A DNA stretch of 64,000 bases, from positions 55,813-119,812 of the forward strand of contig JBAYFY010000001.1 in the NCBI GenBank assembly GCA_041666945.1, given 5' to 3'. This document shows, piece by piece, positions 3,791-30,879 of the stretch. Position numbers and translations under genes: made by a program. The stretch is from Candidatus Buchananbacteria bacterium (GTDB taxonomy: Bacteria > Patescibacteriota > Patescibacteriia > 2-01-FULL-39-33). Numbering within the stretch: the first letter of the stretch is position 1; every line of letters starts with the position of its first letter. The notes beneath the pieces were generated by a model. It did no database searches, was not told the DNA's origin, and worked only from the letters and a program-made list of their open reading frames with translations.

Positions 3791-5155
3791 TTATTTTTGT
3801 AATTTGTTTTGGCCCCACTTTTTCATCTCAATCTGTATCGGCGTGCCGATGATTTTGAAGGTGTCGCGCAAATTATTCTGCAAAAAACGCAGATAAGAAA
3901 AATGCAAAGTCGCCGGATCATTCACGTTAATGATAAAGCGCGGCGGATTGGTGCCGCCTTGGCGGATGCTGTAAATGTAAGGATTCTTCAATCCTTTGCC
4001 GCGGCTGGGGCGGTGCTGTTTGATTTTTGATTTTAAGAACTTGTCCAAACGCGAATCGGAAATTTCCACTAAGCGCGAGCCAATGATTTCCAAAATGACG
4101 TCTAAGATTTTTTTGCTGCGCAAATTTTCTTTGGCAGAAACGAAAATCAAAGGCGCCCACCACAGATAAGGAAATGACAGGCGGTAGTAATCCACGAATT
4201 TGTCAATCGTTGCCGTGTCTTTGTCGCCGATCAAATCCCATTTGTTGGCCACGATAATCACGGACTTGCCCGATTCTAAAATGGCCTGGGTTATTTTTTT
4301 GTCCTGCACGTCGATTTTTTTGTCCGCTTCGGTGACGAGCACGGCCACATCGCATTCGGCCAGCGCTTTAAGCGATTTGGCAACGGATTTTTTTTCTAAT
4401 CCGCCTTCCACCCTGGCTTTCTTGCGCAGTCCGGCCGTATCAATAATAACGAATTTGCGGTCATGATATTCAAATTCAGTGTCGTGCGCTTCGCGCGTGG
4501 TGTGCGGCAGGGGGCTGACGATGACTCGCTCTTCGCCTAAAATTGAATTAAGCAAAGATGACTTGCCGACGTTGGGCTTGCCTAAGAGGGCGACGCGAAT
4601 CGGTTCTTGTCCGGCTGTTTCAGCGCTTTTTTGCGGCGGGAGTTTTTTGACGATCTCATCCAGCAAGTCGCCGGTGCCGGAACCGGAGGCGGCGGAAACA
4701 AACAACGGCTGGCCTAAGCCCAATCTTTCCACGCCGGCCGAATGCTTTTCATATCTGGCGCTTTCCGCTTTGTTGCCGACCACTAAGATTTTTGAACGCA
4801 GGCCTTGGCGAAGCAAGGATTTGGCCAATTCCCGATCCGACGTCAGGATGCCGGTTTTCAAGTCAATGACAAAAATAATAACTTTAGCCGTTTTAATGGC
4901 TTGTCGGGCTTGCTTAATAATGCCCAGCGCGATTTCCTCGGGCGCGCCTTCAATCAAGTCAACATCCAGCCCGCCGGTGTCTACCAGGGTGAATTTGACG
5001 CCGCGCCACTCGGCTATGCCGATGTTGCGATCGCGCGTAGTGCCGGCAACGGAAGAAACCAGCGCCTTGTTCTGTTCTATCAGGCGGTTAAAGAGAGTGG
5101 ATTTGCCGACATTGGCTCGGCCGACAATGGCTACTTGCGGTAATTTATCAGACAT
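3791..5155 (-). CDS. der: Ribosome-biogenesis GTPase Der/EngA with tandem GTPase domains
   Basis: Two G-domains, GRANVGKSTLFN...DTGG and GKPNVGKSSLLN...DTAG...NKWD, plus a C-terminal KH-like domain. Start taken at MSDKLPQVAIVGR (5155). Confidence 0.92.
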   Translation of the reverse strand: MSDKLPQVAIVGRANVGKSTLFNRLIEQNKALVSSVAGTTRDRNIGIAEWRGVKFTLVDTGGLDVDLIEGAPEEIALGIIKQARQAIKTAKVIIFVIDLKTGILTSDRELAKSLLRQGLRSKILVVGNKAESARYEKHSAGVERLGLGQPLFVSAASGSGTGDLLDEIVKKLPPQKSAETAGQEPIRVALLGKPNVGKSSLLNSILGEERVIVSPLPHTTREAHDTEFEYHDRKFVIIDTAGLRKKARVEGGLEKKSVAKSLKALAECDVAVLVTEADKKIDVQDKKITQAILESGKSVIIVANKWDLIGDKDTATIDKFVDYYRLSFPYLWWAPLIFVSAKENLRSKKILDVILEIIGSRLVEISDSRLDKFLKSKIKQHRPSRGKGLKNPYIYSIRQGGTNPPRFIINVNDPATLHFSYLRFLQNNLRDTFKIIGTPIQIEMKKWGQNKLQK

Positions 5156-15500: not shown

Positions 15501-18500
15501 ATTTGGCGTCCAATCTTATACCGCAACGTTGCGAAGGCAAAAATATTTGCGCGGATGTGTCCATTAAGAAAAACATCCTGTATGTTTTGTCCGATAATAT
15601 CCAAGCGGGAAGCGTAATCTGCAGCGATGTTGATAATTTGAGTAATAATTTTTCCGATGATCTCGGTCATTACCTTTATTTGGCCACGGATAATCTCAAG
15701 TCATTGACTTGCCGTGTAACTTTCCAGACCAAAGACGGCTCGCCGATAGATTTAATCAAAGACAAGATCGGATTGGGCAGCGTTTCTTATGTTTTAAATT
15801 CAAAAGTTACCGGCGGAGATTGCAACGGCCAGGTGGATTACCACAAAGGTTGCATCCTGTTTAATGACCGCAGTCAGTTGGATTACGGCAATTTGATCAA
15901 TAGCGCCACCACCTCCTTGGTTTTCTCCAGCCGTTTGACTCGGGATAATAATTATCCGCAGGGGATTAACGGCCTGGCTCAACCAGTATCGCCAATAGCG
16001 ACGGCCGCCGCCGGGAAACCTAAAGATGCCAATATTATTTTAAAATCTCAGCCCAATCGCGCTTGCGCCAGTTGGCTGACTTGCTCTACTTTTGAAAAGA
16101 AAAAGGAGGGCCAGTCATCGGCTTTGGCCCCGTATTTTTTCAGCGATCAAGATTCTTGTTTGGAAGTCGGCGCTTGCAATTCTTTGGGAGACAACGGCAT
16201 TTGTAATAATTATCTGACTAATGAGGCCGTAAGCAGCGATACTTATTCTCCTTCGTCAGATGCCAATAAATCCGGCTTTTCACGCGTCGGTTATTATTCT
16301 TTTGACGCCATGACGCAGGTCGGCCAATCGTCCAACATAGTTAATGGCAATTTTGAAGAGACCTTTGGCGCCACCACTCAGCCGTTAGGCTGGAAGCTGT
16401 CCACTTATTATTGCGCCAGCAATTCCAATTGCGCCAGCGGCAATCCCGATATTGTTTACAGAAATTGGCAAGCCAGCTACGTTACCGTCGGCCGCGATGG
16501 CACCAAAGCCAAGGATGGCGTGGGATATTTGAAAGTCAATTCCGGCTGGGGGGTTATTTCCGAATCGGTTGATATATTGCCTAAGCAGGAATATTTCTTA
16601 TCCGCCTGGGTTCATACCAAGGATTTGCAAGGACCGGGCGCCGGCGGTCGCTTGCCTTACGCGGAATTGCGTTTGCGTTTCCTTAATTCCAAAGGCCAGC
16701 CACGGCCCGGCTTGGCTACCGTTGACGGCGGTACTTATGAGGGTGATTGGGTTAAGGGTGGAATTATGCAAATACCCACGGGTTTGCCTTGGCAGCAAGT
16801 AGTTGTGCATTTTACCACCGGTGACAATGTTTCTGGCGTGCAATTCGCTTTGTTTAATATGAATCCGGATGGCGAAAAAGGCATAGACAACAGCAAGCTC
16901 GGCGGTTATACCATTTGGGATAATGTTAATCTTAAGCCGTTGCTTAAATCCAATAACGCAGGTTATATTGATCGCACTTGTCGCGTTTACCCCAGTATGA
17001 ACGCCCCGGCTTGCAAATATAATAATGGCAATAATTATTTTTACGGCCAATACGGTTATTGTCTGACGCCGGATCCTGCCAATAGCCAGCAGTGTTTGCA
17101 ATGGTGGCCGGTTGATTCTATTCGCGGCGAGACCTTAAGCGATTTTTCCAGTTATTACAGCGAGCGTTATCCTTTGTATTATTGTTTGGAAAAGAAAACT
17201 ATTACTTTGGACGTGTCTCAATACACTGGCAATTTCGGTTTGTTCGGCGAGGGCGTTAATGAGTCCGGAATGGAATCGTTAAAGTTTGACCAAAGCGCTA
17301 AACAGACCAAAGCCACTTCATTCAATATCAGTCCGACTTGGTCGCCGCTTTTCCGTTATCCTTTCATTTACAAATTCCAATTTGACGGTTTGTTTATCGC
17401 TATCGGCGATACGGCCAGCCATACTTTGTTCGGCGGCGCTCTGTCAGTCGGCATGTGGAAAAATTTGGTTTGCGCCAAGCCGCTGGGCATCATTCCTTTG
17501 CCGGTTTGTTATGTGCCGATCGGCAATAATCTGATTACTTCATCGGATGAAGCGGGGGCCATAACTACTCCGGCTCAAGAGGAAATCCAGGCCTGGATTC
17601 AAAACAACCCCAGTAATCGGGTGTGTGAATTTTCCGTTTTGGCCACCCTGCAGGATTCTGATGCCAATAGTCCGGTCGGTTGCGAATGCGATTCAACAGC
17701 AGAGAAAAACAAGGGCGCAAAATTGAATGATGAAATCAGCGATAGCATCTGCCAAAGCAAAAACAATTGCGGCGCCGGCTCGCCGAACTATAATTGCATT
17801 ACCGCTGATTTGGCCAAGGATTATACTCAACCCATCAGTGATTACACTTATCTTTGCGAAACTACGGCCGAGCCCTGTTCTTGCGCCGCTCCTGACGCCG
17901 AAGGAAAATGCGAAGATTCAGTTCATTGCTCCAATTCGGGCACTAATAAATGCGCCAAAGTGTTTATTGATAGCGGCGCTTCCGCCGGAGCGGCCGGAGT
18001 CGCGCAAACGATTTCCCAGCAAAACCAATCATTAAATGACGCTTATCAGAATTGTTCCGACGAAAATCCCTGCGAAGGTTACGATTCAGGCAGCGGTTTC
18101 TGGTCCAAACTTTGGAGCGGCATTAAACAATTTTTCGGTTCTATTTTCAGCACCTTGGGTAATTTATTGGATATAGTTTTTGCTCCCAATTCGCTTAATT
18201 TGGCCGCTGAAGATTCTTGGGGCGGTTGGGGAGCGGTAGCCATCGCCGGTTACGGCCAATTATTAAGTTTCGTACCGGTTAATATCGTTTTGCATGTGGA
18301 GTTGCCTTGGCATACTGCCAAGAAGTTTGACACTTCCGGAGGGGTTTTGGGCAACTTGGCCGGCATGATTATTCAGCAGGCAGGCGTGGATTTAGGGGTT
18401 TCCACTTTCGGTTTAAGGATTATTACGGATGAGGATTCGGAATTTGGTAAAAATTTAACCGATCCCAATCCCACAGTAACCGGAGACGTTCTGGGGTTTG

Positions 18501-21235
18501 CCAAGTTTTTGGACTTTAATAAGCCGGCCGGCATGGGCGATAAAATGGGCGCCATAACCGTGGTGGGAAATTTTGCCGGCAAACAAGTCGTGGAATATTG
18601 TTCCAAATTAGTCCAAGTTGTCAACTCTGGCGATGAAAATAAGGCCTGGGCCAGTCGCTTATCTCCCGGTTCGCAATATTTGGATTATTTGGGCAAGGAT
18701 TGCGTCAAAGACAGTTCGGTTTCCGGCGACGCCATTCCTTCAGGCGTGGGTATTGTTACGCCCAGCAATGATGAATTATTTTCCGACGGTTGTTTCTATA
18801 GCTCCGCTTATTGCTTGGCGGAAAGCCGTCGTCTTTATAGCGCCTCCGGTCAATTATTGGGCTTTTACCCTTTGAATTTGTGCCAGAATTTTATCGGTAT
18901 TGACGATGGCAGGGGAGTCAATGATCCTGATGATGCCACGCGTAAATTATATTGTGCCGAAGATATTTCCCTGGAGGGCAGACAGCGCACCGCTTATCTT
19001 AATCAAGCCAATGCCTTAAACTGCCAGATATCCTATAATTCCCGTCCCGCTACCGATTCCTCGGATAATGATTATTTTCAGGTTCACAGCTTTGCCAAAA
19101 ATGGATCGCTCACCATGAGTGATTGCCAGATTAATTATAAATACTTCTGCGTCAATGACAGAAGTTTCGGGGCCACAGGAGTTTGGAGATCAAAGAAACT
19201 TATTTATCGCCGTGTTTACGCGGCCGTCGGTTATAATTATACCAGCGATTACAAACCCTTCGGTTCTTTGGTAGCGCCGGAAAATGGCCAATATCCCAAT
19301 GAGTGGGACACGCGTCCTGATTCCAGCGGCAATCAGCCGATTTTCTATGAATTCCCCGGCGGAGAAAATCCGCCCTATCAAGCGCGCGCCGGGCAGAAAT
19401 CAGGCACCTCCATCTATTATATTGATAATTTTTCCGTTAATAAGCCGGATTTATTGCAATTATTCGGCCGTTCTTACAGTTTATGGCAGTGGCAAGCGGA
19501 TAAATCCAGCGATCCCTTGATCGGCCATTATGCCGACGTTACCGGCACGACCGGGTCTAATAACTCGGTTTGGAGTTTGCCCACGTTATATTGTCCCAAT
19601 AATTCGCGTCCGACTAACACCTATCTGTCATTCTGTTTGGTCAAGCCGGAATTCACTTTAGCCAAAGTCAGCCCCACTATTGTCAACAGCATCGGCGCGG
19701 TCAAAGTCAGTTTTAATTCCAAAATTGATCCGGATCAAGTGCCTATCCGTTCTTATGATGTTGATTGGGGCGATGGCAGCATCTCATCTTATGCCGGTTT
19801 GTCTTTGGCCAGCCGTCCTACCTCCTCAAATACTTTTGATTTGTATCATTTCTATAATTATGACAGTTTAGCCAACAAAAATTTGCGGGAATGCGAGACC
19901 AAAGCCGGTGTTCTGGTTTTGGGCGACGGCACGACAGAAACAATTGAAGAGTTCAATGATGATTTGACTCGGGGCGCCTGCCAAGAACCGGTTGGGTCGG
20001 TTCCCAATGCCTCTGCTTTCCATGTGCCGATTAAATTGACTGTGAGAGACAATTGGGCTTCAGCCAATTCAATAACGATTAAGGATTTGATTGTTTTAAG
20101 ACGCGATACTTATGATGCGGAACAGCAAGACGCCATTGCCGAGTGCAAGACGACCAGTTACAGTTCAGCTTTGGGCCAGCAATGCGCCAGCGGCAATCCT
20201 TGCTGTTCAGCCGCTTGTTATTGGCGGCCGGCGGAAGAAGTTAATACGGAGCAATGTTGTGCCACTTATTTCGGCGGTTGGCGCAGGTGCCAGGAGATAG
20301 GCGACGGTTATTGCGATCTGGGCGAACAGGCCACCGATGCCAATGCCGAACATTATAGTCCGGATGATTGCGGCAATATCGTATCCAATGTTACGCCGAT
20401 TGATTATGCCGATGGCATCTGTCCGGAAACCAAGTCATTGGATGATGACATTGATTGTCCTTTAGGCCAAGGCAGTTTGGTTACTTTAGCCCATGACAGT
20501 TATGACTGGCAGGCGTTTATGGCGGTAAATACCGTCGGCGGCGGTTGCGGCGGAACTCCGGATACTCAATTTAATGATGGCAGCGGCGCCAGCAAGGGCA
20601 ATTTTAACTTTAACGCCGATGCCGCTACTTTTTCCGGCTATGCCGCCAGCGGCAATACCGAATACTTTCTTGATTTGGTTTATGCTCCCAATGATACGGA
20701 AAACGACAAACAATTGCGTTACGGCGATATTTTCCGTTTGGTGCCTTGTTTCCAGGGCGTTTACGGTTTCGGTTCCAATAATTGTCCGACAGTATCGTCT
20801 GTTAATCCTGCCACTGCCGTGTCAATTCCCGCAATCAGCCCGATAAAATTGAATATTTACAAAATACAGCCGAATTGGTGGCAGCAATTATGGGGAACAG
20901 ACCCCGGAGATTGGAAAGCTTACCTTGATACTTGCGGAACGGACGGCGATGTTTATTTTAAGGTTTGCCAAAGTCAAGCTTGCAACGGTCCGGCTGATAA
21001 AGTGGGAATCGGCGATCGGGTGGTTTTAAGGATGGTAACCAATTCGGCGCAGGCTGGCGAGCCGCTTGAAGCCAGTTTGTATGATGTGGCTTTGCATGTG
21101 GGCGGAGAGGATAGAGCGCCGACTTTCTTGAATACCGAAGAAGACGCGTCCCGTCCTTACAAGGCGGCTCAAGTGAATGTTTCACCGTCTTTGAATTTTC
21201 GTCTCTGTAACCGTTATGGCAATTGCGGATATTAA
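9590..21235 (+). CDS. Giant (3881 aa) secreted cysteine-rich multidomain surface protein. It has CBM4/9-like jelly-roll modules and a PKD-like motif, and is adhesin-like.
   Basis: Single uninterrupted ORF. N-terminal signal peptide MRVNNHKFWLRHFSALALMLGLFVVGQKIVLAQS. At least 8 recurrences of C-x5-GC-x2-[FYW]. Module starts of the NIVINGGFDG... and NIVNGNFEETFG type. YDVDWGDGS (PKD signature). One internal hydrophobic segment. Confidence 0.85.
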   Translation: MRVNNHKFWLRHFSALALMLGLFVVGQKIVLAQSGVIYEIDETVVQAQAAKFCASAGSVGAVGGEEGLDCTNEIFAKTQAKLAECAAMYAAAQSSAAVCTGPQSLTCLAEVQVKIAEYHEACDSYSKYYVEGQQMAADLAKEERDIKSKKRRIQFLNALSTSASKALDTLLRSVTREATKIAFTALKGQKPAYITEGWNAYLINAADSALGDFVDNFSQHYGMDICQPDLSVQLLINVQLSQTTPRVRCTFSEIMSNWQEAVTNPVFPLEYTLALRPGENDITASLLALDLRDMAVNQQVTAKTYEASTNQGWLSKVTLNGKILTPGTLLHDMMTDAMLKKGNSQYSITWTETAMAVPFEFMDTVVAESLGLLKEGLFSLEQSAYGNNSSSGGSSNLASQGANILSGALTALFNPSASPIITEGTKGAEARINNAISGSQGQQGGKIDLIVKLSSCDDSAKTNPGPMDCVMDDALAQAVKSKTYVIDLPDQIKNRVFSPRSEQSNSLQTAIPYRSILILRQYRIVPVGWEEAADVIRNSNSNREYTLGELINCYEGIGKNGCTTNNFKGMVDPYWTLKAYETSCRRQGYGALNLNKDDQSGTIGRLEYCSDEQQCLQEDENGACLAYGYCSEERRIWDLGKTCPARANSCQTYTSRAGNAASYLTNTLDFRNCNAQVAGCRWYAVDYNPSSQTWTNLGGGTQFTSPEVINQVITFSRSNRDWWVQAGHQVSANSRLRLASPCSSEMCKLDATGKGCVFHQTTGGNYCSFQYSEAAGATGYIPQDPSCNVPDNGVSCQLRLCNDPKLFANVYAAEIENTPNLGLERALNGQETWKAASWTLAFIDNGNRHLRVTADKHSGNASLLIKTLYAPADLISYEPAIPVEKNTNYNVRFYYKGSINGSINVEVRAGDGDGLSFGQNSDLWPSLLNNLQLTDGSTGWREVNFNFNSGDNEQVVLVARNSAGVYADLYLDDFEFYPISTACGAGAVSVFVSSREGATEMYFDRDAKTCSAASDGCSQFIRTKSNLGGNIVINGGFDGALYDWSNLSLAENTKAKITHINSLDSASSNKSVQVTPGQYYFLAFDGYQASAGQTAEVDAFLRFKSKANAVLQVATSSATCEWAQEKDGSVPQTLALRFTPGSYATSSRFFCKFKAPDNAVKMELWLSSGISGQEAVIDNVKIEAISFNATYPSNYSDYNPATRPTEQISYLKKAPAYYNCYDAYPEIIGWQWPQNQQELTGVLKNKNANCSNYSGVCTPQEVGCELYRPLNGDPSIPGVAQDFDACPKECAGYQLYNQEETNFINQTFKQFIADKKLKTCSASYAGCDEFTNLDAAGQGGEQKEYYSQIRACQKPAIDDGAYYTWEGSDITGYQLVAFSLKKSQIASDPEITGAGKGSAPCTNLAHNVSGNAICSDPTDARGPGNDRYDFGVCVKDDMVSNPDCRELYDVDGNIHYRLLSRTVSVSDNCHPYRRTMTETSLTEAQTNCTSHSGWWNGNNECIYMTIPGQGKTCPATAQGCRAYTGNRGNNVKNAINVINFTASSTALDLWEDENGGKNGLFISSESTFPGGNSLSNKADNSTINYPITIAKNKAYTLSFWAKGNAAYYFDNIRFAEKSGANWDDNSAANGDNYFSASRLVGENLINPRTQLTAEWKRYELGPLFVTWEPGDGNYLEFSMPNGQIVYLDNVILKEITNQVYAIENSWFTPVSCDNKLDDPEGSRAKAENACQDAKSGRCSVGEMLGCAGYLDRSNKTSYLRSFASLCRPEAAGCEALIDTFNSSAPQAQSFNGTNGANHDDVTVAADTLVYLVNDDKYACAKGDKGCTRYGLPLIDKWDEITGYRDVYLENDPDRYSTDLCAAENLWCEEWTGNNTLIYFKDPHGKVCQFASADNTNSWDKWVKSDTAETCPTTYQQTLGLSYKAATDKLQPLGPINSVTLQEPADPAYSGWVGSCSAEQSGCSEYIDPLDNLASNLIPQRCEGKNICADVSIKKNILYVLSDNIQAGSVICSDVDNLSNNFSDDLGHYLYLATDNLKSLTCRVTFQTKDGSPIDLIKDKIGLGSVSYVLNSKVTGGDCNGQVDYHKGCILFNDRSQLDYGNLINSATTSLVFSSRLTRDNNYPQGINGLAQPVSPIATAAAGKPKDANIILKSQPNRACASWLTCSTFEKKKEGQSSALAPYFFSDQDSCLEVGACNSLGDNGICNNYLTNEAVSSDTYSPSSDANKSGFSRVGYYSFDAMTQVGQSSNIVNGNFEETFGATTQPLGWKLSTYYCASNSNCASGNPDIVYRNWQASYVTVGRDGTKAKDGVGYLKVNSGWGVISESVDILPKQEYFLSAWVHTKDLQGPGAGGRLPYAELRLRFLNSKGQPRPGLATVDGGTYEGDWVKGGIMQIPTGLPWQQVVVHFTTGDNVSGVQFALFNMNPDGEKGIDNSKLGGYTIWDNVNLKPLLKSNNAGYIDRTCRVYPSMNAPACKYNNGNNYFYGQYGYCLTPDPANSQQCLQWWPVDSIRGETLSDFSSYYSERYPLYYCLEKKTITLDVSQYTGNFGLFGEGVNESGMESLKFDQSAKQTKATSFNISPTWSPLFRYPFIYKFQFDGLFIAIGDTASHTLFGGALSVGMWKNLVCAKPLGIIPLPVCYVPIGNNLITSSDEAGAITTPAQEEIQAWIQNNPSNRVCEFSVLATLQDSDANSPVGCECDSTAEKNKGAKLNDEISDSICQSKNNCGAGSPNYNCITADLAKDYTQPISDYTYLCETTAEPCSCAAPDAEGKCEDSVHCSNSGTNKCAKVFIDSGASAGAAGVAQTISQQNQSLNDAYQNCSDENPCEGYDSGSGFWSKLWSGIKQFFGSIFSTLGNLLDIVFAPNSLNLAAEDSWGGWGAVAIAGYGQLLSFVPVNIVLHVELPWHTAKKFDTSGGVLGNLAGMIIQQAGVDLGVSTFGLRIITDEDSEFGKNLTDPNPTVTGDVLGFAKFLDFNKPAGMGDKMGAITVVGNFAGKQVVEYCSKLVQVVNSGDENKAWASRLSPGSQYLDYLGKDCVKDSSVSGDAIPSGVGIVTPSNDELFSDGCFYSSAYCLAESRRLYSASGQLLGFYPLNLCQNFIGIDDGRGVNDPDDATRKLYCAEDISLEGRQRTAYLNQANALNCQISYNSRPATDSSDNDYFQVHSFAKNGSLTMSDCQINYKYFCVNDRSFGATGVWRSKKLIYRRVYAAVGYNYTSDYKPFGSLVAPENGQYPNEWDTRPDSSGNQPIFYEFPGGENPPYQARAGQKSGTSIYYIDNFSVNKPDLLQLFGRSYSLWQWQADKSSDPLIGHYADVTGTTGSNNSVWSLPTLYCPNNSRPTNTYLSFCLVKPEFTLAKVSPTIVNSIGAVKVSFNSKIDPDQVPIRSYDVDWGDGSISSYAGLSLASRPTSSNTFDLYHFYNYDSLANKNLRECETKAGVLVLGDGTTETIEEFNDDLTRGACQEPVGSVPNASAFHVPIKLTVRDNWASANSITIKDLIVLRRDTYDAEQQDAIAECKTTSYSSALGQQCASGNPCCSAACYWRPAEEVNTEQCCATYFGGWRRCQEIGDGYCDLGEQATDANAEHYSPDDCGNIVSNVTPIDYADGICPETKSLDDDIDCPLGQGSLVTLAHDSYDWQAFMAVNTVGGGCGGTPDTQFNDGSGASKGNFNFNADAATFSGYAASGNTEYFLDLVYAPNDTENDKQLRYGDIFRLVPCFQGVYGFGSNNCPTVSSVNPATAVSIPAISPIKLNIYKIQPNWWQQLWGTDPGDWKAYLDTCGTDGDVYFKVCQSQACNGPADKVGIGDRVVLRMVTNSAQAGEPLEASLYDVALHVGGEDRAPTFLNTEEDASRPYKAAQVNVSPSLNFRLCNRYGNCGY

Positions 21236-21265: not shown

Positions 21266-24200
21266 GTGATGCCTTACCAAAAACACAAAAGAATAATTTT
21301 AACTCTGTTATTAGCCGCCGTAGTGGGAGGCGGAGTTTTGGGTGTTTTTATCAGCTGTTCTTACGCATATACTAATAGTTATATACAAAGCGCGGGACAA
21401 CTAACAGATAAAAGAATACGATTGACTGGCAATGAAAATATAGAATATCAAGTGTGGCGGTTTGGTAATCCGCCCGAATATTATTTAGTAAATCCTGCCG
21501 GGCAAGATGCGGATACAGCTATGCTCGCCGATGAGAATGGCAATCTGGTTGATCCTAATACTGGAAAATCTCAATCACAAGCAACGGCAGGAACCAGGAC
21601 AGAGACCTCCGGTGCTCAATCCGCTCTTTCCGATGTAATCGCCCGCATGCTGGCCTGGATACTTTATGGTTTAACCTACGGTTTGGGTTGGATTTTGATT
21701 TTAGTCACTAAAGCCATGTTGGCCGTCTCCACTTTTAATAATTTTACCAATCACACGGTAACCACTGTCGGTTGGAAAATTATCAGGGACGTATGCAATA
21801 ATTTTTTCATTATTTTGCTCTTAGTTTCCGCTGTCGGCACGATTCTGCACCAGAAAAACTACGATTTTCGCACGATGATGCCCAAGATCCTGTTAGCGGC
21901 GGTTCTTATCAATTTTTCCAAAATGTTTTTCGGCTTGATGATTGACGCCTCGCAGATTTTAATGTTGACTTTTGCCGCTCCGCTGGCGCAAAGCACCGGC
22001 TATAATGTGATTTTGAATGCCCTGGGCTTGCCTGATTTAATGTCTTTAAGCGGCGTGGCCGCTCAATTGGAAGCAGTCGGTTTCAGCACTTGGAATTTGG
22101 TGGCAGCCATGTTGTTTGCGGTTATTTTTACTTTTATCGCTTTAGTGGTGATCGTGTGCATCACTGCTGTTTTGATGTACCGGGTTGTTTATATGATGTT
22201 TCTGGTTGTGTTATCGCCCCTATATTTTTTCGGCTGGGCCTTTCCTGCCGCTGGCAAACATACCAATCAAATTTTAAGCGATTTGGTCAAATACCTGATT
22301 ATCGGTCCGGCCATGATGTTTTTTATTTATATTTCCCTGATTACGCTTAAGGATCTTGGAAATGGTGAACAGTTTGACAGTACGATTTCCTATGATTTGC
22401 AAACTACCGGGACCGGCGGCAGCGCGGAATTGCAAAAAGAAGCGGCGGTGGCGACCGGGCTTAGTACGGAGAATTCCACTATTTTGGCCTTATCTAAAAT
22501 GGGGACAGTGGAAAAAATTATTAATTTCGGTTTATTGATCGGTTTGCTTGTTTGCTCTTTGGTAATCGGTCAAAAATTGGGTACGGCCGGCGGTTCCTGG
22601 GCCGGCAAAGGCATGGGATTTTTAACTAAACAAGGCAAGCGTTTCAGCGGCTTTAATCTGGCCAAACGTACAGCTAAAGAAGCTCCCAGAGCCATTAGCA
22701 CGGCCGTTGATGACAGATTGGGCATCAGGCAAAGGTTGTATTCCGGCCTCTACCAAGTCGGCGGCAAAAACATACCTTTCGCGCGTGAGGCCCTGGGCGG
22801 CAAAATAGAGTCGCTGGAAGCGGGCACCACCAAGAGGTTTAATCAAAGAATCAGAGCAGTGGCCCAGGGAGCAAAAATTGATAAAAAGGATGAGAACCAA
22901 TTGCGCGATTTAGCTTCCGGCGGCGCTAAATATGAAAAGATTGCCGCTATTCAGGCCCTGATGAAGAAGGGTTTAATCAGAGATGATGAAATCAATGAAA
23001 GCAAGAAACGCAATAATATTGATTTGGTTAATCAAGCGCGTCTCGCTTTGGAGGGGACGGAATTAGGCAAAGAGTTTGATGAGAATTTGAGAAAATACAA
23101 TCCCAATTTGGCCATGAATACCATGTATACCAGGGCAGGCAAGATTAATCGCGAGAAATTGGAGTCGGATCTTAAGACCGGCAAAGTTGATTTGAATAAG
23201 ATTATGGGCAGTATGGACCCCGCGACCTTAACCAATCTTAATGAAGCGTTGGGCGGCAAAAAAAATGACGCCGGACAATTTGACGATACTTTGGCTAAAT
23301 TTTTAATGAAGCATGGCGCCGGCGATTTATCTAAATTGGATAAAGCCATGTCCTCGGAAGTCAAGAAGAGCATCTGGTCCGGGGTCTCTCACACGTCTTT
23401 CATTAAAAAGGACGCCCAAGGCAATAATATTATTGACGCCGCCGGCAGGGCTGCTTATGACGAAGATTTGCGCAAAGAATATTTGTCAACGAAATATGAC
23501 GTGGCCAAGGCCTATGATCGCAGCGATCCGGAACAAAAAGAAAAAGCGCGTAAGTATTTCAGCGAGAATCGCAATAAGGTTTTGGAGAATATGCACTCTG
23601 ACGGCATGACGGCCGATTTTATGCGCGATTTCGGCGATTTGGTTTCGCCTAAAGAATTGCAGGAGAAATTCGGCGATCGCAGCAAGGAACATTCGGGTAA
23701 GATGGAAGCTGCTCTAAGAGAGGCGATTGTCGGTAATGGCGGAAACATCAGCCCTTACGATTTCGGCCAATTGAATGGCAATCTGGCAGAAGCCAGAAAA
23801 GGATTAAGCGTTGCCACTGGAGCAAGCAGAAGCGCCGCCCAGCAGGCCGTTGATCAAGCGGCAAAGAATTTGAAAGACGCCGAAGAAATGATTAAGAAGT
23901 ATTTGTTGTCCCAGGGGTCGTTTGAAGGCATCACCGGGCAAGTCAATGCGGAAAACAAATCAAATATCGTCGGATCGCTTAAAGCCGAAGAAGCGGAAAA
24001 AATCAAGTGGGGCAGTTTGTCCGATGCCGATCAGAGAGCGGTAGCTCAAGGCATGGATGCCAACACCTTGTGGGTAATCGGCGCCAGAGGCAATAATAAT
24101 GAATTAATAAAAGGCGTCAAACAGAGAATTTTTGACGAAGTGGAAAACGACCCGGTGAAAAAGGGGTACGATGATTTGATTGAGCGAGCTAAAAAATTAA

Positions 24201-24505
24201 GATCCGAAGACGAGCAAATAGAGAGCGATTTAAAGAGCTTGCAGGCAAAAGGCGATCCGACATTGCAAAACGATATTAACGCGTTAATGCTAAGACGGGT
24301 AGAATTGAGAGGCGATCAAGCCAGAGGCATTGAAGGAGAGAGAAAGAAAATAAATGACGCCATTGAAAAATTTTTAAAAGAAAACGAGAGATTCTTCGTG
24401 GATATTAACGAAGATCGCCCGAAATTTAAGCCGACCGATTGGGATAAAAAAGCCCGAGCGATTAAGGGCAAGAAAAAGGGCGGTGATTTTGAAGAACAAG
24501 CATAA
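21266..24505 (+). CDS. VirB6/TrbL-like polytopic membrane protein (TcpH/PrgH-type) with a ~700-aa charged coiled-coil C-terminal extension
   Basis: About 7-8 TM helices between aa ~120-440 (e.g. ILLAAVLINFSKMFFGLMIDASQILMLTF, VVIVCITAVLMYRVVYMMFLVVLSPLYFFGW). A K/E/D-rich tail follows. It starts 30 nt after the giant gene. Confidence 0.55.
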   Translation: MMPYQKHKRIILTLLLAAVVGGGVLGVFISCSYAYTNSYIQSAGQLTDKRIRLTGNENIEYQVWRFGNPPEYYLVNPAGQDADTAMLADENGNLVDPNTGKSQSQATAGTRTETSGAQSALSDVIARMLAWILYGLTYGLGWILILVTKAMLAVSTFNNFTNHTVTTVGWKIIRDVCNNFFIILLLVSAVGTILHQKNYDFRTMMPKILLAAVLINFSKMFFGLMIDASQILMLTFAAPLAQSTGYNVILNALGLPDLMSLSGVAAQLEAVGFSTWNLVAAMLFAVIFTFIALVVIVCITAVLMYRVVYMMFLVVLSPLYFFGWAFPAAGKHTNQILSDLVKYLIIGPAMMFFIYISLITLKDLGNGEQFDSTISYDLQTTGTGGSAELQKEAAVATGLSTENSTILALSKMGTVEKIINFGLLIGLLVCSLVIGQKLGTAGGSWAGKGMGFLTKQGKRFSGFNLAKRTAKEAPRAISTAVDDRLGIRQRLYSGLYQVGGKNIPFAREALGGKIESLEAGTTKRFNQRIRAVAQGAKIDKKDENQLRDLASGGAKYEKIAAIQALMKKGLIRDDEINESKKRNNIDLVNQARLALEGTELGKEFDENLRKYNPNLAMNTMYTRAGKINREKLESDLKTGKVDLNKIMGSMDPATLTNLNEALGGKKNDAGQFDDTLAKFLMKHGAGDLSKLDKAMSSEVKKSIWSGVSHTSFIKKDAQGNNIIDAAGRAAYDEDLRKEYLSTKYDVAKAYDRSDPEQKEKARKYFSENRNKVLENMHSDGMTADFMRDFGDLVSPKELQEKFGDRSKEHSGKMEAALREAIVGNGGNISPYDFGQLNGNLAEARKGLSVATGASRSAAQQAVDQAAKNLKDAEEMIKKYLLSQGSFEGITGQVNAENKSNIVGSLKAEEAEKIKWGSLSDADQRAVAQGMDANTLWVIGARGNNNELIKGVKQRIFDEVENDPVKKGYDDLIERAKKLRSEDEQIESDLKSLQAKGDPTLQNDINALMLRRVELRGDQARGIEGERKKINDAIEKFLKENERFFVDINEDRPKFKPTDWDKKARAIKGKKKGGDFEEQA

Positions 24506-24508
24506 ACT

Positions 24509-25027
24509 ATGGCTGATCAAATGACAAAAGAGTTGGGCGCAATCGCCGAGTTAAAACGGTTCAATCCTTGGATCGACTCTTTTCAGTTGTCTGATCCCGA
24601 GATTTATGCGGTTATTGATTTGATCGGCCAGGTGATTTGGGGCGACATGACTTTAGAAGAATTCCCTTTGGCTTTGCAGAAAGCGGTTATCAAGGATGAC
24701 GCCGCTAAACGACGTTTGATTATAGAAATTGCCAAAAACCGTTTTAAGGATTTTCAAGACGATCTTGGCGATGTTGACGCTTTTATCAATAATTTTCAGT
24801 CCGGGAACAGTGTCGTCTCCCCTGTGGTTGAAAACAGCTCTCCTAAGGAAACAAAAAACCTCCCGCCTTCGCCGGCTGTTTCTGCTTTAGTCAAACCGGT
24901 TAACAGCCGGGATGAAATATTGAGACAGTATGACTGGTCGGCCACCACCGGCTTGGAACGCCGTTTGCTGTTGGAAGAATTAGGCGTCAGCCGGCAGGAG
25001 TTGGAAGATTATTTGAAGAGTAATTAA
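24509..25027 (+). CDS. Hypothetical protein (172 aa), translationally coupled within the T4SS-like module
   Basis: ORF with a 3-nt gap to its neighbours. No recognisable motif. Confidence 0.55.
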   Translation: MADQMTKELGAIAELKRFNPWIDSFQLSDPEIYAVIDLIGQVIWGDMTLEEFPLALQKAVIKDDAAKRRLIIEIAKNRFKDFQDDLGDVDAFINNFQSGNSVVSPVVENSSPKETKNLPPSPAVSALVKPVNSRDEILRQYDWSATTGLERRLLLEELGVSRQELEDYLKSN

Positions 25028-25097: not shown

Positions 25098-26507
25098 ATG
25101 CCCCAAGATTATTTAAACAAACTTAAATCTTTACCGCCAACAGTCAAAAACAAACTGTCTACGGATGCGATATTGTCTAAATTGGATGCTTTGGACGAAG
25201 AATTCGGCATCAAATCCACCTCTTTGGTAATCAGTATTCTTTTAGGTGAAGTGACTACCGGAGTTTTAGCGGATAAATTGAAGACCGATTACGGTTTTAA
25301 TGATTATTTGGCGCATCAAGTAGCCAATGGCGTTAGGGAAGTAGTGAATGAAGTCGGTTATTACGGCCGGCCAGCTGGAATGGCCGCCCTCCCGGCGAAA
25401 GAAAGCAGAAAACCGATTCTTGACGCCTTAAACAAACCGCAAAATTCCACAGTTATGACTTTTTCCCGCGAAGATGAAGAGGAAATTGAAAAATATATTG
25501 AGTCGGTTAAAACGACGCCGCGGATTACCGATTATACCGATGCCGCCACCTCAATTATCCTGTCTTTTGGTTATCCGGTCAGTGATGAAGTGATGATTAA
25601 GCGTCTGGGCTCAATCATTATCGCCCGACTCAAAGATATTCGCGATGAACTGGAAACCAAGGAGAATTTAATGAAAAGCCGCAAGGTTGGAGGTATGGAA
25701 TTTCCTGAAGCCGATGCCGACAGAATATTGAAGATTATCAAATCAGTTGTTGCCGGGCAGGCCGCGCCGGCTGACGCCGGAGCGGTTTCAAAGGAATTGC
25801 AAGAAATTTTAGCGGCCAATGAAGAGGCCGACACAATAACGCCGCCCGTTGAAAAACAGCAGCCAAGAATTTCCCCCGCTCCTCCCACTATAGAAATGGA
25901 AGACGGCTTGCCGGTAATTCGGATGCCTGATGATTTAATGATCAGGCCGCGGGATGAATCTGCTGTTTTAGAAAAGAAACTCGGCTTAACGCCGTCTTTC
26001 GAGCAGGGGAGAAAGAAACCTCAATTGCCCACAGCCGCACAAGATGTTAAAATTAAGACAGCCAAGGATTTGCCTTTGCCGCAACCCCAGCCGTTTGCGG
26101 CCAGAGAAACTTTTACCGGCAATCTGGCCATGCCGCGTTCGACCGGCCGGCCGAACTTGGATGATGTCAAATTCAATAAAAAATTAATGGGACCGATTGA
26201 AGAATTGGAGAGTATGACCTTGATCGATTTCCGCCGTTTATCCCCCGATCCGGTTGCGGTAACAGCCAAAATTAAGGAGAAAATTGATTTATTGGAACAA
26301 GAGCATTTTGGCAAAAAAATCGATGGTATAGCGGCTTGGCACAAAAATGAAGTCAGTAAATTTTATCGTTTATTGGGCCAAACGGCCATGGCTGAAGGCA
26401 AGAGCATTGAAACGGTAATCAAAGAGCGCCTGACTGACGGTAAACCGACTTTGTCGTTAGATGAATTCCATGCCGTTATGGGGCTTAATCGTAATTTACG
26501 TTATTAA
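25098..26507 (+). CDS. Hypothetical Pro-rich protein (469 aa)
   Basis: Long ORF on the operon strand with a Pro-rich central region (PPVEKQQPRISPAPP...LPLPQPQP). No recognisable catalytic motif. Confidence 0.6.
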   Translation: MPQDYLNKLKSLPPTVKNKLSTDAILSKLDALDEEFGIKSTSLVISILLGEVTTGVLADKLKTDYGFNDYLAHQVANGVREVVNEVGYYGRPAGMAALPAKESRKPILDALNKPQNSTVMTFSREDEEEIEKYIESVKTTPRITDYTDAATSIILSFGYPVSDEVMIKRLGSIIIARLKDIRDELETKENLMKSRKVGGMEFPEADADRILKIIKSVVAGQAAPADAGAVSKELQEILAANEEADTITPPVEKQQPRISPAPPTIEMEDGLPVIRMPDDLMIRPRDESAVLEKKLGLTPSFEQGRKKPQLPTAAQDVKIKTAKDLPLPQPQPFAARETFTGNLAMPRSTGRPNLDDVKFNKKLMGPIEELESMTLIDFRRLSPDPVAVTAKIKEKIDLLEQEHFGKKIDGIAAWHKNEVSKFYRLLGQTAMAEGKSIETVIKERLTDGKPTLSLDEFHAVMGLNRNLRY

Positions 26508-26509
26508 TT

Positions 26510-26953
26510 ATGCAACAAGTGGTTGTGCCGCAATTTTTGGATGTTGAGGATAAAATTATCGGACCGATTTCCGTCCGTCAGTTTGTTGAGTTGATTGTCG
26601 GCGGATTAATTATCGTGATTTTTTATCGCATTTTTGATTTTTCTTTGTTTATCGTCTCCGGTTTGATAGTTTTGGCTATAACTTTAATCGTGGCCTTCGC
26701 CAAAATTAACGGCCAGCCCTTTCATTTATTCCTGCTTAATTTTATCCAGACCTTAAAAAATCCCAAGCTTAAAGTTTGGCGTAAATTTTTCACCCTGGAT
26801 GAAATAAAAGCCGATTTAATTAAGCCCAAAGAAGAAAAACCGCCGCTTCGGATGGCCGCGCGCCAGCCCGTCAGCAAATCCCGCCTGTCGGAAATCGCTT
26901 TGGTCATTGATACCGGCGGTGTCTACCAGGGAGAAAACGGAGTTAATGATTAA
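26510..26953 (+). CDS. PrgI-family / VirB3-like small two-TM T4SS membrane protein
   Basis: MQQVVVPQFLDVEDKIIGPISVRQFVELIVGGLIIVIF...FIVSGLIVLAITLIVAF. This is the typical size and topology, and it sits immediately upstream of VirB4. Confidence 0.55.
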   Translation: MQQVVVPQFLDVEDKIIGPISVRQFVELIVGGLIIVIFYRIFDFSLFIVSGLIVLAITLIVAFAKINGQPFHLFLLNFIQTLKNPKLKVWRKFFTLDEIKADLIKPKEEKPPLRMAARQPVSKSRLSEIALVIDTGGVYQGENGVND

Positions 26954-27001: not shown

Positions 27002-27685
27002 ATGGCTAAAAATCGACAAGCCACCAAAACCACCCCCTCAACCCAGAAATTCTTGCAGATAGCGGAGATCAGGGACGACACTATCGTAATGAAAGACGGC
27101 ACTTTGCGGTCAGTGATTTTGGTGTCCTCAATTAATTTTGCGCTTAAATCCGAAGACGAACAGAACGCCATTATTTCCGGTTATGTCAGTTTTTTGAATT
27201 CTTTGGATACGCCTCTGCAGATTATCATTCAATCGCGTCAACTGGATTTGGAATCATATCTGGAATTTTTAAAAGATGCCGAAACCAAACAAACAAATGA
27301 TTTGCTAAAAATGCAAATGGCCGAATATCGGCAATATATCACAGAATTGGTGGAATTGGGCAATATTATGACTAAACGATTTTTGGTCGTGGTGCCTTAC
27401 GAGCCCTTCCGGTCAAAAACCAGGAATTTTTGGCAGCGGAGCGGCGATATCCTGTCGCCGACAAAAGTTTTATCTTTGGGGCAAAAACAATTCATGCAAA
27501 GACAGCGGGAACTTTTAACCATAGTGGACAGGGTTTTAACCGGTTTGGCCAGCATGGGTTTGCGCGCCCAGGTTTTAGACACCCAATCATTAATTGAAAT
27601 TTTTTATAACACCTACAATCCGACTGTTTCTCGCAGTGAAAAATTGGTTGACGTTAATAAATTAAGAACCGAAGACCTCGTTTAA
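27002..27685 (+). CDS. VirB4-family ATPase, N-terminal domain fragment (split gene)
   Basis: IAEIRDDTIVMKDGTLRSVILVSSINFALKSEDEQNAIISGYVSFLNSLDTPLQIIIQS matches the N-domain of Gram-positive VirB4 (TcpF/PrgJ/TraE type). The stop lies 4 nt before the next ORF in another frame. Confidence 0.6.
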   Translation: MAKNRQATKTTPSTQKFLQIAEIRDDTIVMKDGTLRSVILVSSINFALKSEDEQNAIISGYVSFLNSLDTPLQIIIQSRQLDLESYLEFLKDAETKQTNDLLKMQMAEYRQYITELVELGNIMTKRFLVVVPYEPFRSKTRNFWQRSGDILSPTKVLSLGQKQFMQRQRELLTIVDRVLTGLASMGLRAQVLDTQSLIEIFYNTYNPTVSRSEKLVDVNKLRTEDLV

Positions 27686-27689
27686 TTTT

Positions 27690-29594
27690 ATGTTTACTCC
27701 CGAAGATATCAACAAACAAACAACCCCGCCGCCGGTCGGCTATGCTCCGCCGCCAGCGCCAACGCCGCAACAAAAGAAACAAACAGAACTCAAAGAGTTG
27801 CAAACGGCGCGTGAAGTTTTAGAAGAGGAGAGAATTTATCGGCGCGGCGTCGTTTCCGTCCGGGATTTAATAGCTCCGGCCGCTTTGGAAGTCAATTCCG
27901 ATCATATCAGGTTGGGTGAACTTTACATTAGGACCATCTTTGTTTTTGAATATCCGCGTTATATCGCTGTCGGCTGGTTTGCGCCGATTATCAATATGGA
28001 TATTGAGGCGGACATGGCCATGTATTTTTTTCCGGTCAAAGCCGCGGTCATTTTAAAGCAGCTAAAGAAAAAAGTCGGCGTATTAGAGGCGACAATTATT
28101 GGCGCGGCGGAAAAAGGCGCGCCTCGCGATCCTCTGGCCGAAACTGCTTTGCGCGATATGGAAAAGTTGCGCGATGATCTGACCCAGGGCATTGAGCATT
28201 TTTTCCAATTCTCGCTATATGTGACGCTATATGCCAAAACACTGGAGGAATTGGATAAGACCTCGGAACGCATTGAGAATTTTTTCGGCGGCACTTTGAT
28301 TTTCTCCCGCCGGGTATTCTATCAGGCCGAGCAAGGTTTCAATTCCACTTTGCCCATGGCGTATGACGAACTCCAGGTTTATATCAACCTTAATTCTTCA
28401 CCGGCCGCTTCTTCCTTCCCGTTCGTTTCTTCCGATTTGACTTCCGATCATGGCATTCTGTACGGCATCAACCGCCACAATAACAGCTTAATCCTGTTTG
28501 ACCGTTTTTCCCTGCAGAACGCCAACTCCGTGGTGTTTGCCACTTCCGGCGCCGGCAAGTCCTATACGATTAAATTAGAGGTCTTGCGCAGCATGATGTT
28601 CGGCACCGATGTGATTATCATTGATCCGGAACGCGAATATAACCATTTGTGCGAAGCTGTTGGCGGCACTTACATTGACATCTCGCTTAATTCTGAAGGC
28701 AAAATCAATCCTTTTGATCTGCCTCGCGCTATTGGCGAAGACGCCAAACCGGCGGATATTATCCGCAATGCCGTTATCACTGTTAAGGGGCTGGTGCGAT
28801 TAATGATTGGTGATGTGACGCCGGAAGAGGACTCCATTATTGACCGCGCGCTATTAGAGACCTATGCCAAGAAAGATATTACGCCCGATGCCGATTTACG
28901 CACCGTGGAGCCGCCCATTATGCAGGATTTCCAGGATATCCTGGAGGGCATGGAAGGCGGCAACAATATTGTTTTGCGGCTCAAGAAATACACTGAAGGC
29001 ACTTTCTCCGGCTTGCTCAATCATCCGACTAACGTCCAATTGAATAATCAGCTGGTGGTTTTTTCCGTCCGCGATTTGGAAGATGAACTAAAGCCGCTGG
29101 CGATTTACACCATTGTCAATTATATTTGGAATATTGTCCGTTCGGAAATGAAGAAAAGGATTTTGGTGGTGGATGAGGCCTGGTGGCTGATGCAACGCGA
29201 GGATTCGGCCAAATTTATTTTTGCTTTAGTCAAGCGTTGCCGCAAATATTACTTGGGCGTTACGACTATCACCCAGGATGTCAATGATTTTCTGACTTCT
29301 CCCTACGGCCAAGCCATCGTCAATAATTCCGCCATTCAATTGCTGCTCAAGCAATCTCCGGCGGCCATTGATTTGGTGCAAAAAACGTTCCTATTAACCG
29401 AGGGCGAAAAATATTTGCTATTGGAGGGCGCGGTAGGCGAAGGCATTTTCTTTGCCGGCGCCAAACATGTGGCGGTTAAAGTTGTGGCTTCCTATTCCGA
29501 AGACCAATTGATTACTTCCGACCCGCGGCAATTATTGGAAATTGAGGCGGCCAAGAAAGAGTTTGCCGAAGCGATGCTGTCGCAGAATAATTAG
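27690..29594 (+). CDS. VirB4-family T4SS ATPase, central and C-terminal ATPase portion
   Basis: ...YIRTIFVFEYPRYIAVGWFAPIIN..., Walker A FATSGAGKSYT, Walker B LVVDEAWWLM, and ...GVTTITQDVNDF. Confidence 0.85.
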   Translation: MFTPEDINKQTTPPPVGYAPPPAPTPQQKKQTELKELQTAREVLEEERIYRRGVVSVRDLIAPAALEVNSDHIRLGELYIRTIFVFEYPRYIAVGWFAPIINMDIEADMAMYFFPVKAAVILKQLKKKVGVLEATIIGAAEKGAPRDPLAETALRDMEKLRDDLTQGIEHFFQFSLYVTLYAKTLEELDKTSERIENFFGGTLIFSRRVFYQAEQGFNSTLPMAYDELQVYINLNSSPAASSFPFVSSDLTSDHGILYGINRHNNSLILFDRFSLQNANSVVFATSGAGKSYTIKLEVLRSMMFGTDVIIIDPEREYNHLCEAVGGTYIDISLNSEGKINPFDLPRAIGEDAKPADIIRNAVITVKGLVRLMIGDVTPEEDSIIDRALLETYAKKDITPDADLRTVEPPIMQDFQDILEGMEGGNNIVLRLKKYTEGTFSGLLNHPTNVQLNNQLVVFSVRDLEDELKPLAIYTIVNYIWNIVRSEMKKRILVVDEAWWLMQREDSAKFIFALVKRCRKYYLGVTTITQDVNDFLTSPYGQAIVNNSAIQLLLKQSPAAIDLVQKTFLLTEGEKYLLLEGAVGEGIFFAGAKHVAVKVVASYSEDQLITSDPRQLLEIEAAKKEFAEAMLSQNN

Positions 29595-29659: not shown

Positions 29660-30229
29660 ATGCTTGAAGATCGACGACGATTGGTACTGATTATTTTAGC
29701 TATTGCCATAGTGCTATCTTTAGCAGTAGCTTTATGGTTGATATTCGGACCTCAAAAAAAACCCCAGAATCAACAAACCGGGTCGACACCGCAGGTGGAG
29801 ACAGGTGGCAGCGCCGCTACTTTCGGCTTGCCGGCAGCGCCGCCGGAGCGTTTGGAACAGGAAAACGATTATCCCATCGGCTTAAAGCAATTAGCCATGT
29901 CTTTTGCCGAACGCTATGGCAGTTATTCCACTGACGAACCGCAAAAAAATATCAAGGATTTGGAATCGCTTATGACTGTGACAATGTATAAAACGTCTTT
30001 GGCCCAAACGCCGGTTATCGGCGCGGCCGGGTTTTCCGGTTACTCGGTCAAAGCGCTTTCTGCCGATTTGCAAAGCGTAAAAACCGATTCAGCGGCAGTA
30101 TTAGTCAAAACCCAAGTCACGCAAACCAGCGGCGACGGCATTACGCCCAATGTTTACTATCGCAACTTGCAATTAACTTTTATTAAATCCGGCACAGAAT
30201 GGCTGGTGAATCAGGCGAAATGGCAATAA
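29660..30229 (+). CDS. Small bitopic membrane protein (189 aa), possible VirB8-like/NTF2-like T4SS component
   Basis: N-terminal TM LVLIILAIAIVLSLAVALWLIF plus a ~150-aa extracytoplasmic domain. Its position is right after VirB4. The assignment rests on topology and context only. Confidence 0.5.
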   Translation: MLEDRRRLVLIILAIAIVLSLAVALWLIFGPQKKPQNQQTGSTPQVETGGSAATFGLPAAPPERLEQENDYPIGLKQLAMSFAERYGSYSTDEPQKNIKDLESLMTVTMYKTSLAQTPVIGAAGFSGYSVKALSADLQSVKTDSAAVLVKTQVTQTSGDGITPNVYYRNLQLTFIKSGTEWLVNQAKWQ

Positions 30230-30879
30230 ACAATATTAAAGAACAGATCGCCGATTTGTTGTTTCCGCGTTACTGCCTAAGCTGTCGGCGGGAAGGTGAG
30301 TGGTTGTGCGAGAAGTGCTTGATAACTTTGCCGGTCGGAAAAAGGCAATTGTTTTTGCCGGTCGGTGTTGGTGGAATAGAAGTTACGGCTTTATTTGATT
30401 ATGATCAATTACTGATGGGCAAGATTATCGCCGCCTTAAAATATAATTTTGCCTTTGATCTGTCGCGAACCGTTCATCGTTTGGTGAGTGAAGTAAAATT
30501 GACAGAACAAATAGGCAATGATCCCACAGTTTTAGTTCCAGTGCCCCTGCATCGTCGTCGGTATCTTTGGCGCGGATTTAATCAGGCGGAAATAATCGCA
30601 CAAGCCCTGGCGGCCGCTAATTCTTCTTGGTCAGTTTGTCCGGATTTGCTTAGGCGAGTTATTTACTCTAAGCCGCAAGTCGGACAAAAACAAAAAGATC
30701 GGGTTAGAAGCGTGCAAGGAGTGTTCCGGATCAATTTGGAGCGATTAAGCGATAATTGGAATAAACGTATTATCTTGGTTGATGATGTTTTAACCACGGG
30801 CTCTACTTTAAGCGAATGCGCCGAAGTTTTAAAAACCGCTGGATTCGCTGAAATTAGCGGTTTTGTCTTGGCTACATGA
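30220..30879 (+). CDS. comFC: ComF family protein (ComFC; phosphoribosyltransferase-domain competence protein)
   Basis: N-terminal zinc finger CLSCRREGEWLCEKC and PRTase motif ILVDDVLTTGSTLSE. Start at MAINNIKEQ, overlapping the upstream ORF by 10 nt. Confidence 0.85.
   Translation: MAINNIKEQIADLLFPRYCLSCRREGEWLCEKCLITLPVGKRQLFLPVGVGGIEVTALFDYDQLLMGKIIAALKYNFAFDLSRTVHRLVSEVKLTEQIGNDPTVLVPVPLHRRRYLWRGFNQAEIIAQALAAANSSWSVCPDLLRRVIYSKPQVGQKQKDRVRSVQGVFRINLERLSDNWNKRIILVDDVLTTGSTLSECAEVLKTAGFAEISGFVLAT

Follow-up and report, generated by a model that had tools for sequence, protein, structure and literature searches.

A split VirB4 ATPase in Candidatus Buchananbacteria is most probably a normal trsD–virB4 gene pair

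Organization of the locus

ORF1 and ORF2 lie in tandem on the forward strand of a 64,000-nucleotide stretch of Candidatus Buchananbacteria DNA, referred to here as the window (Table 1). The original prediction took them for a VirB4 ATPase divided between two open reading frames, 4 nt apart and in different frames, and this description holds: the coordinates are as given, and the raw sequence and ORF list place ORF2 in the +1 frame relative to ORF1. Upstream, the ORF2 frame is closed by a TAA at 27663–27665, so any fusion of the two by frameshifting would be confined to the short interval 27666–27683. The Walker A and Walker B motifs said to be intact in the longer ORF were both found there, as ATSGAGKS and ILVVDE.

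Table 1. Features of the trsD–virB4 region (positions in the window)
Feature	Position	Strand	Description
PrgI/VirB3-like small membrane protein	26510..26953	+	147 aa, immediately upstream of ORF1
ORF1, TrsD-like gene	27002..27685	+	227 aa, ATG start, TAA at 27683-27685, soluble
Junction	27683..27692	+	ORF1 TAA, 4-nt spacer 'tttt' (27686-27689), ATG of virB4
ORF2, N-terminally short VirB4-type (TrsE-like) ATPase	27690..29594	+	634 aa, ATG start
Walker A, ATSGAGKS	28539..28562	+	ORF2 aa 284-291
Walker B, ILVVDE	29160..29177	+	ORF2 aa 491-496

The gene order is PrgI(VirB3)–ORF1–ORF2, with a virB3/prgI-like gene on one side of ORF1 and a virB4 gene on the other. The product of the first gene matches the Pfam PrgI family (PF12666; E 2.9e-8, 34.6 bits against a cut-off of 27 bits) and has two hydrophobic segments, at aa 20–38 and aa 46–64; no hydrophobic segment was found in either ORF1 or ORF2 when one was sought. 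The PrgI-like protein is expected to be the membrane anchor for the N-terminal region of VirB4, and its gene occupies the position of trsC in pSK41 and of the PrgI genes in pSC2 and pJFP838A. The genes are chromosomal, and the flanks are housekeeping genes (a KsgA-type methylase, RecG and a ComFC-like protein).

Identity of the two proteins

ORF2 alone passes the curated cut-off (325 bits) of NF045971, the NCBIfam profile for VirB4 proteins of the CD1110 family, scoring 355.8 bits (E 4.7e-106) across profile positions 179–732 of 752. Positions 1–178 are absent from it, and no single polypeptide covers the whole profile; ORF1 matches positions 2–119 (E 1.8e-8). ORF2 is thus an N-terminally short, TrsE-type VirB4. 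It matches Pfam P-loop_TraG (7e-31), and its parts are a proline-rich leader (aa ~10–30), the second half of the VirB4 N-terminal domain, and a C-terminal RecA-like ATPase domain. The crystallized C-terminal ATPase domain of VirB4 (PDB 4AG5) aligns to ORF2 aa 249–609 only (E 2.1e-51), and residues ~48–250 still belong to the VirB4 N-terminal region. The earlier division into ‘ORF1, the N-domain’ and ‘ORF2, the rest’ was roughly right, then, but the split is within the N-terminal domain: by alignment, the break falls inside that domain rather than at its border with the C-terminal domain.

ORF1 is less easily named, and the original prediction did not recognize it as a known TrsD-type protein. 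Besides NF045971, it matches the N-terminal positions of NF045975, the NCBIfam profile of the Mbov_0397 family of VirB4 proteins (E 8.8e-11), and positions 12–143 of 201 of NF041427, the TrsD/TraD profile (42.6 bits, E 5.8e-11). The curated cut-off of NF041427 is 200 bits, which ORF1 does not reach; it is homologous, but lies outside the narrow staphylococcal/enterococcal plasmid subfamily, and with 42.6 bits against 200 it is a distant relative of staphylococcal TrsD. A local Pfam scan of ORF1 returned TraC_F_IV only, below threshold (17.6 bits); its homologues all carry a precomputed assignment to Pfam PF26593.

These homologues are numerous. A large protein collection holds 4,936 of them, the best 120 of which are all 212–253 aa long (E 2e-131 to 1.7e-87, query coverage 92–100%). 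Representatives at 50% identity number 2,515, and the best 150 of these range from 116 to 443 aa at 36–81% identity, some with C-terminal extensions of 100–200 aa. Neither among the best 120 of the 4,936 nor among the best 150 of the 2,515 is there a homologue fused to an ATPase. The ORF1 orthologues come from the same lineages as the TrsD profile matches described in PMC12102498.

When the ORF1 model was compared with the PDB by Foldseek, the top 14 matches were all TrwK/VirB4 chains, with E 1.2e-2 to 0.22 and probabilities of 0.35–0.99 (0.99 for the top four); the best TMq was 0.41. Searched by sequence, ORF1 found matches to PDB chains at chance level only (best E 0.12), and hhalign of the ORF1 family alignment against PrgJ was not significant by itself (E 0.24, probability 0.3%), so the link between ORF1 and the VirB4 N-terminus rests on the NCBIfam profiles and the Foldseek ranking. 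By these measures ORF1 corresponds roughly to a free-standing homologue of the first ~180–220 residues of an unsplit VirB4, such as PrgJ, and ORF1 and ORF2 taken together are co-linear with the unsplit protein.

Conservation of the split

When a single genome was scanned for each species, 80 loci with a homologue of ORF1 were found (ORF1 identity 52–94%), all of them in metagenome-assembled genomes of Patescibacteria type: Buchananbacteria, Falkowbacteria, Parcubacteria and others. Of the 80 species, 79 have an ORF1 homologue that ends in a stop of its own at the equivalent position, with a homologue of ORF2 directly downstream. The upstream protein is 221–260 aa long in these relatives, and the downstream one, where complete, 616–670 aa; the motif xTSGxGKS is present at 75 of the 80 loci. 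In a single relative, L070, trsD stands apart from virB4. A comparison of orthologues had been proposed at the outset as a way of learning whether VirB4 is split throughout this lineage, and the outcome, 79 in 80, points to a real two-gene arrangement; the genuine two-subunit protein, one of three explanations put forward by the original prediction, is strongly supported by it.

The two genes are usually close together, but how close varies a good deal. Across the 79 species the median spacer is 14 nt, between extremes of an 8-nt overlap (ATGTTTAA) and 469 nt; the spacer is 10 nt or less in 35 species, 25 nt or less in 53, and at least 60 nt in 19.

Relation to known systems

Split VirB4 proteins of this kind are not new. 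TrsD is the most abundant component of the type IV secretion systems (T4SSs) of Patescibacteria (Quinonero-Coronel et al. 2025, PMC12102498). As counted by matches to the MPF-FATA (CONJScan) TrsD HMM profile, its homologues there number 2,272, of which 1,664 adjoin virB4, and in the same study TrsD is characterized as a remote homologue of the VirB4 N-terminus. In Gracilibacteria, generally, trsD does not adjoin virB4 (PMC12102498). For Ca. Southlakia epibionticum ML1 the TrsD homologue is reported to be essential (Wang et al. 2023, cited in PMC12102498). The window shares with these published pairs its phylum-level lineage, its components (PrgI/VirB3, TrsD and VirB4) and the adjacency of trsD and virB4; nothing of substance differs, and it is one more instance of them.

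The closest counterpart outside the Patescibacteria is the trs region of the Staphylococcus aureus plasmids pSK41 and pGO1 (MPF-FATA, pGO1 subclass), where trsC (135 aa, VirB3-like), trsD (227 aa) and trsE (672 aa) follow one another in the same order. TrsD of pSK41 and ORF1 are both soluble and ~227 aa long, and are 27% identical over 73 aa (BLASTP E 8e-7, hhalign 1.3e-4). The alignment of TrsE covers its residues 36–570 of 672; residue 36 of TrsE falls opposite residue 59 of ORF2, so the break point is equivalent in the two. pSK41 is conjugative, and a relaxase and a VirD4 are encoded nearby, whereas the genes in the window are chromosomal. The Firmicutes megaplasmids pSC2 and pJFP838A have a comparable set: PrgI, an ORF1 homologue of 312–332 aa, and a 641-aa DUF87 ATPase.

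Unsplit proteins provide the other half of the comparison. PrgJ of the Enterococcus faecalis plasmid pCF10 (CD1110 family, 796 aa) aligns through residues 222–773 with ORF2 residues 55–591 (E 7e-41). As in the window, prgI lies immediately upstream, and it is the N-terminal positions of the PrgJ family profile that ORF1 matches; PrgJ is a single polypeptide, however, whereas in the window its first ~220 residues correspond to a separate gene product. In structure, the ORF1 model comes closest to TrwK/VirB4 of plasmid R388 (cryo-EM structures 7O41 and 8RTB), which the ATPase domain of ORF2 also matches by sequence (2.7e-7). TrwK differs in belonging to a diderm system, in being a single chain of 823 aa, and in its very low sequence identity (9–16%). 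It provides the mechanistic template. As summarized in a 2025 FEMS review (PMC12857230), VirB4 N-terminal domains join one protomer to the next, lie in the membrane, make contact with VirB3 and VirB8, and anchor the ATPase; in solved T4SS structures they keep its hexamer at the membrane.

A probable two-gene VirB4

With a probability that we put at about 93%, ORF1–ORF2 is the normal trsD–virB4 gene pair of the Patescibacteria T4SS, specifying two polypeptides. This T4SS and the MPF-FATA conjugation machinery of monoderms are related. The trsD-like gene and virB4 would belong to one operon, downstream of prgI/virB3, and would be co-transcribed; with a spacer as short as 4 nt, their translation is probably coupled too. 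The TrsD-like protein would then bind, non-covalently, to the half-domain at the N-terminus of the ATPase, and by doing so would rebuild the complete VirB4 N-terminal domain—the membrane-proximal part that binds VirB3 and anchors the hexamer. The apparatus is therefore to be regarded as intact.

It is conceivable, but unlikely, that the TrsD-like protein does something else: that it works on its own as an accessory factor, such as a chaperone, a regulator or an adaptor, and shares ancestry with the VirB4 N-terminus without completing the N-terminal domain of the ATPase. PMC12102498 gives TrsD no assigned function, and trsD is unlinked from virB4 both in L070 and in Gracilibacteria, so TrsD could have a role that does not depend on stoichiometric pairing; it is for these reasons that we keep the idea. 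The C-terminal extensions of some ORF1 homologues, and the greater length of those in pSC2 and pJFP838A, fit it as well. Against it, the segment that ORF1 resembles is exactly the one that ORF2 lacks, the proteins that the ORF1 model matches best by Foldseek are VirB4 itself, and the two genes are tightly adjacent in 79 of 80 species, often with only 1–10 nt between them. An accessory role is, on balance, less likely than a reconstituted N-terminal domain.

If the gene pair does make a two-piece VirB4, the break might be exploited rather than neutral, although we would wager little on this. A detachable TrsD could determine the time or place at which the ATPase docks on PrgI/VirB3, for example by gating the assembly of a T4SS on which the epibiotic lifestyle depends. 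It could also work with another partner, a possibility in keeping with the genomes that have trsD apart from virB4 (L070 and the Gracilibacteria). A related and similarly speculative thought concerns origins: the systems of monoderms and Patescibacteria may descend from a two-gene state, with fusion giving rise to the unsplit VirB4 proteins.

Frameshift, indel or pseudogene

The other explanations offered by the original prediction treat the junction as a lesion, or a recoding site, in what is really one gene, and they fare poorly. Programmed +1 ribosomal frameshifting of the prfB-like kind, at GUU-UAA-U (27680–27686), would produce one full-length VirB4. The ORF2 frame is indeed +1, and open from 27666, and a +1 slip on GUU_U ahead of the TAA would give a continuous protein; moreover, the nearest relatives, L001 and L006, have both the 4-nt spacer and the +1 frame of the window. 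Against it, the spacer is 1 nt in L003, 3 nt in L005 and 6 nt in L004, all close relatives, and among the 79 species the range of spacers is that given above while the relative frames 0, +1 and +2 are evenly spread (29, 28 and 22 species). Neither the last sense codon of ORF1 nor the context of its stop is conserved among the relatives, and the same two-gene layout occurs with other spacers in pSK41 and the Firmicutes megaplasmids. Within 27660–27683 there is no Shine-Dalgarno-like stimulator, and a scan of 27400–27950 against Rfam gave no match at E<=1.

In L002 the 469-nt spacer contains an entire gene, for a 23S-rRNA-intervening-sequence protein (IVP; PF05635, 2.5e-14), flanked by inverted repeats of 35 nt. 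Here the two cistrons are physically parted by a naturally occurring insertion. The search for a conserved slippery heptamer, proposed by the original prediction, likewise came to nothing: in an alignment of the junctions of the relatives there is no conserved slippery motif, and sequence, spacing and frame all vary. Membership of the prfB-type +1 or the dnaX-type −1 class was considered also, and no conserved slippery site, frame relation or stimulatory element was found. The junction is a plain stop and restart, not a slippery site, and programmed frameshifting, set against 80 species-level relatives, is very improbable.

Just as improbable is that an indel, made in sequencing or assembly within the short runs of T at the junction (gTTTaaTTTTatg), has split one gene artificially. 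Removing a single T does restore a continuous frame, ...V-N-F-M-F..., but the runs are just 3–4 nt long, and the stop, at the same position, and the restart recur in 79 assemblies that are independent of one another, stem from separate projects and species, and differ in the sequence of the junction. ORF2 homologues, furthermore, keep a conserved N-terminal start, Met-Phe-(x)-Pro, right after the ORF1 stop, and a fused homologue is absent from both of the sets of best matches described above.

Pseudogenization, by a recent frameshift mutation that inactivated VirB4 and left the T4SS to decay, has nothing in its favor except the split itself and is the least credible reading of all, since the ratios dN/dS relative to L001, at dS ~1, are 0.025 for ORF1 and 0.008 for ORF2, Walker A and B are intact, the split is common to species down to 52% identity (79 of 80), and Ca. 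Southlakia epibionticum requires its TrsD homologue, according to PMC12102498. These ratios signify strong purifying selection on both genes. Neither relaxed selection nor lineage-specific disruption, the criteria by which pseudogenes are known, is found in ORF1 and ORF2. The concern that the apparatus might not be functional, raised when the split was first noticed, was unfounded; the split is conserved, and its two halves have the low ratios just given. Between them, the varying junctions, the insert in L002, the selection and the lack of fusions among the best matches rule out frameshift, homopolymer indel and pseudogenization as accounts of the arrangement.

Implications

The two-gene arrangement is real, functional and already known: it is an ordinary, published property of the T4SS loci of Patescibacteria and of the pGO1 type. 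What is added here, beyond PMC12102498, is a survey of the spacers and frames at the junction, and the mapping of the break point to a place within the N-terminal domain. The comparative junction data make a clean case that TrsD is a separate polypeptide.

For annotation, it follows that the junction is not to be flagged as a frameshift or a pseudogene, and that the T4SS of this genome is to be scored as intact. The fitting names are TrsD-like protein for ORF1 and VirB4 (TrsE-type) ATPase for ORF2. And because the break point is equal to that of pSK41, it supports a shared origin for the systems of Patescibacteria and the pGO1-type systems of monoderms.

Genes around trsD and virB4

The 1,079-aa protein encoded upstream of prgI is likely a VirB6-like channel component: it is organized as a cluster of hydrophobic segments followed by a long charged tail, and its sole match, a weak one (E 1.8e-3), is to pLS20_p028, a conjugation transmembrane protein. 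The two soluble ORFs that come next belong to the T4SS operon. Neither has a significant match in Pfam; in NCBIfam the 172-aa ORF matches nothing, and the 469-aa ORF matches only IteA_antiphage, at a sub-threshold level (E 1.6e-3, 17.6 bits versus a 510-bit cut-off). Beyond virB4 lies a gene for a 189-aa protein with the topology of VirB8, for which a family search gave no match, and this gene overlaps the ComFC-like gene behind it by 31 nt. The T4SS genes are directly preceded by a giant ORF that possibly encodes a surface protein or adhesin tied to the secretion locus.

Features flanking the trsD-like and virB4 genes in the window
Feature	Position	Strand	Characteristics
Giant 3,881-aa ORF	9590-21235	+	N-terminal hydrophobic segment; CBM_4_9 carbohydrate-binding domain (E 4.1e-9)
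1,079-aa protein, likely VirB6-like	21266-24505	+	~7 hydrophobic segments within first 440 aa, then long charged tail
Soluble 172-aa ORF	24509-25027	+	Between VirB6-like gene and prgI
Soluble 469-aa ORF	25098-26507	+	Between VirB6-like gene and prgI
189-aa protein, VirB8-like topology	29660-30229	+	One N-terminal transmembrane helix; after virB4
ComFC-like gene	30199-30879	+	Phosphoribosyltransferase and double zinc-ribbon domains

Exceptional loci among the relatives

In one relative, L002, the trsD and virB4 homologues are separated by an inserted gene for a 23S-rRNA-intervening-sequence protein (PF05635; 1456-1919). This gene is flanked by 35-nt inverted repeats, 89% complementary, and gene and repeats together look like a small mobile cassette. 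Similar short repeated words occur in a number of further loci whose spacers measure 90-130 nt. In another relative, L070, and there alone among the 80 loci, no virB4 was found within 4 kb downstream of the trsD homologue (3989-4654). Every ORF at this locus is short, 288 aa at most, perhaps because the locus is degraded or uses an alternative genetic code.

Many of the related MAGs (among L004, L006, L007, L010, L012, L039, L044 and others) carry the record title 'uncultured Gammaproteobacteria bacterium', and a single one, L044, is titled 'Nanoarchaeota archaeon'. MAGs so titled contain the Patescibacteria gene pair at 52-76% identity, and their taxonomic labels are therefore probably wrong.

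Firmicutes megaplasmids

Two Firmicutes megaplasmids of 400-510 kb, pSC2 of Paenibacillus polymyxa (L081) and pJFP838A of Clostridium perfringens (L082), both described as 'non-mobilizable', have in common a conserved block that encodes TlpA, sigma-70, ClpX, PrgI, a TrsD-like protein of 312-332 aa and a 641-aa DUF87 ATPase. The Patescibacteria protein shares ~26-29% identity with these plasmid TrsD-like proteins over ~88-89% of its length, and it is nearer to them than to TrsD of the staphylococcal plasmid pSK41.
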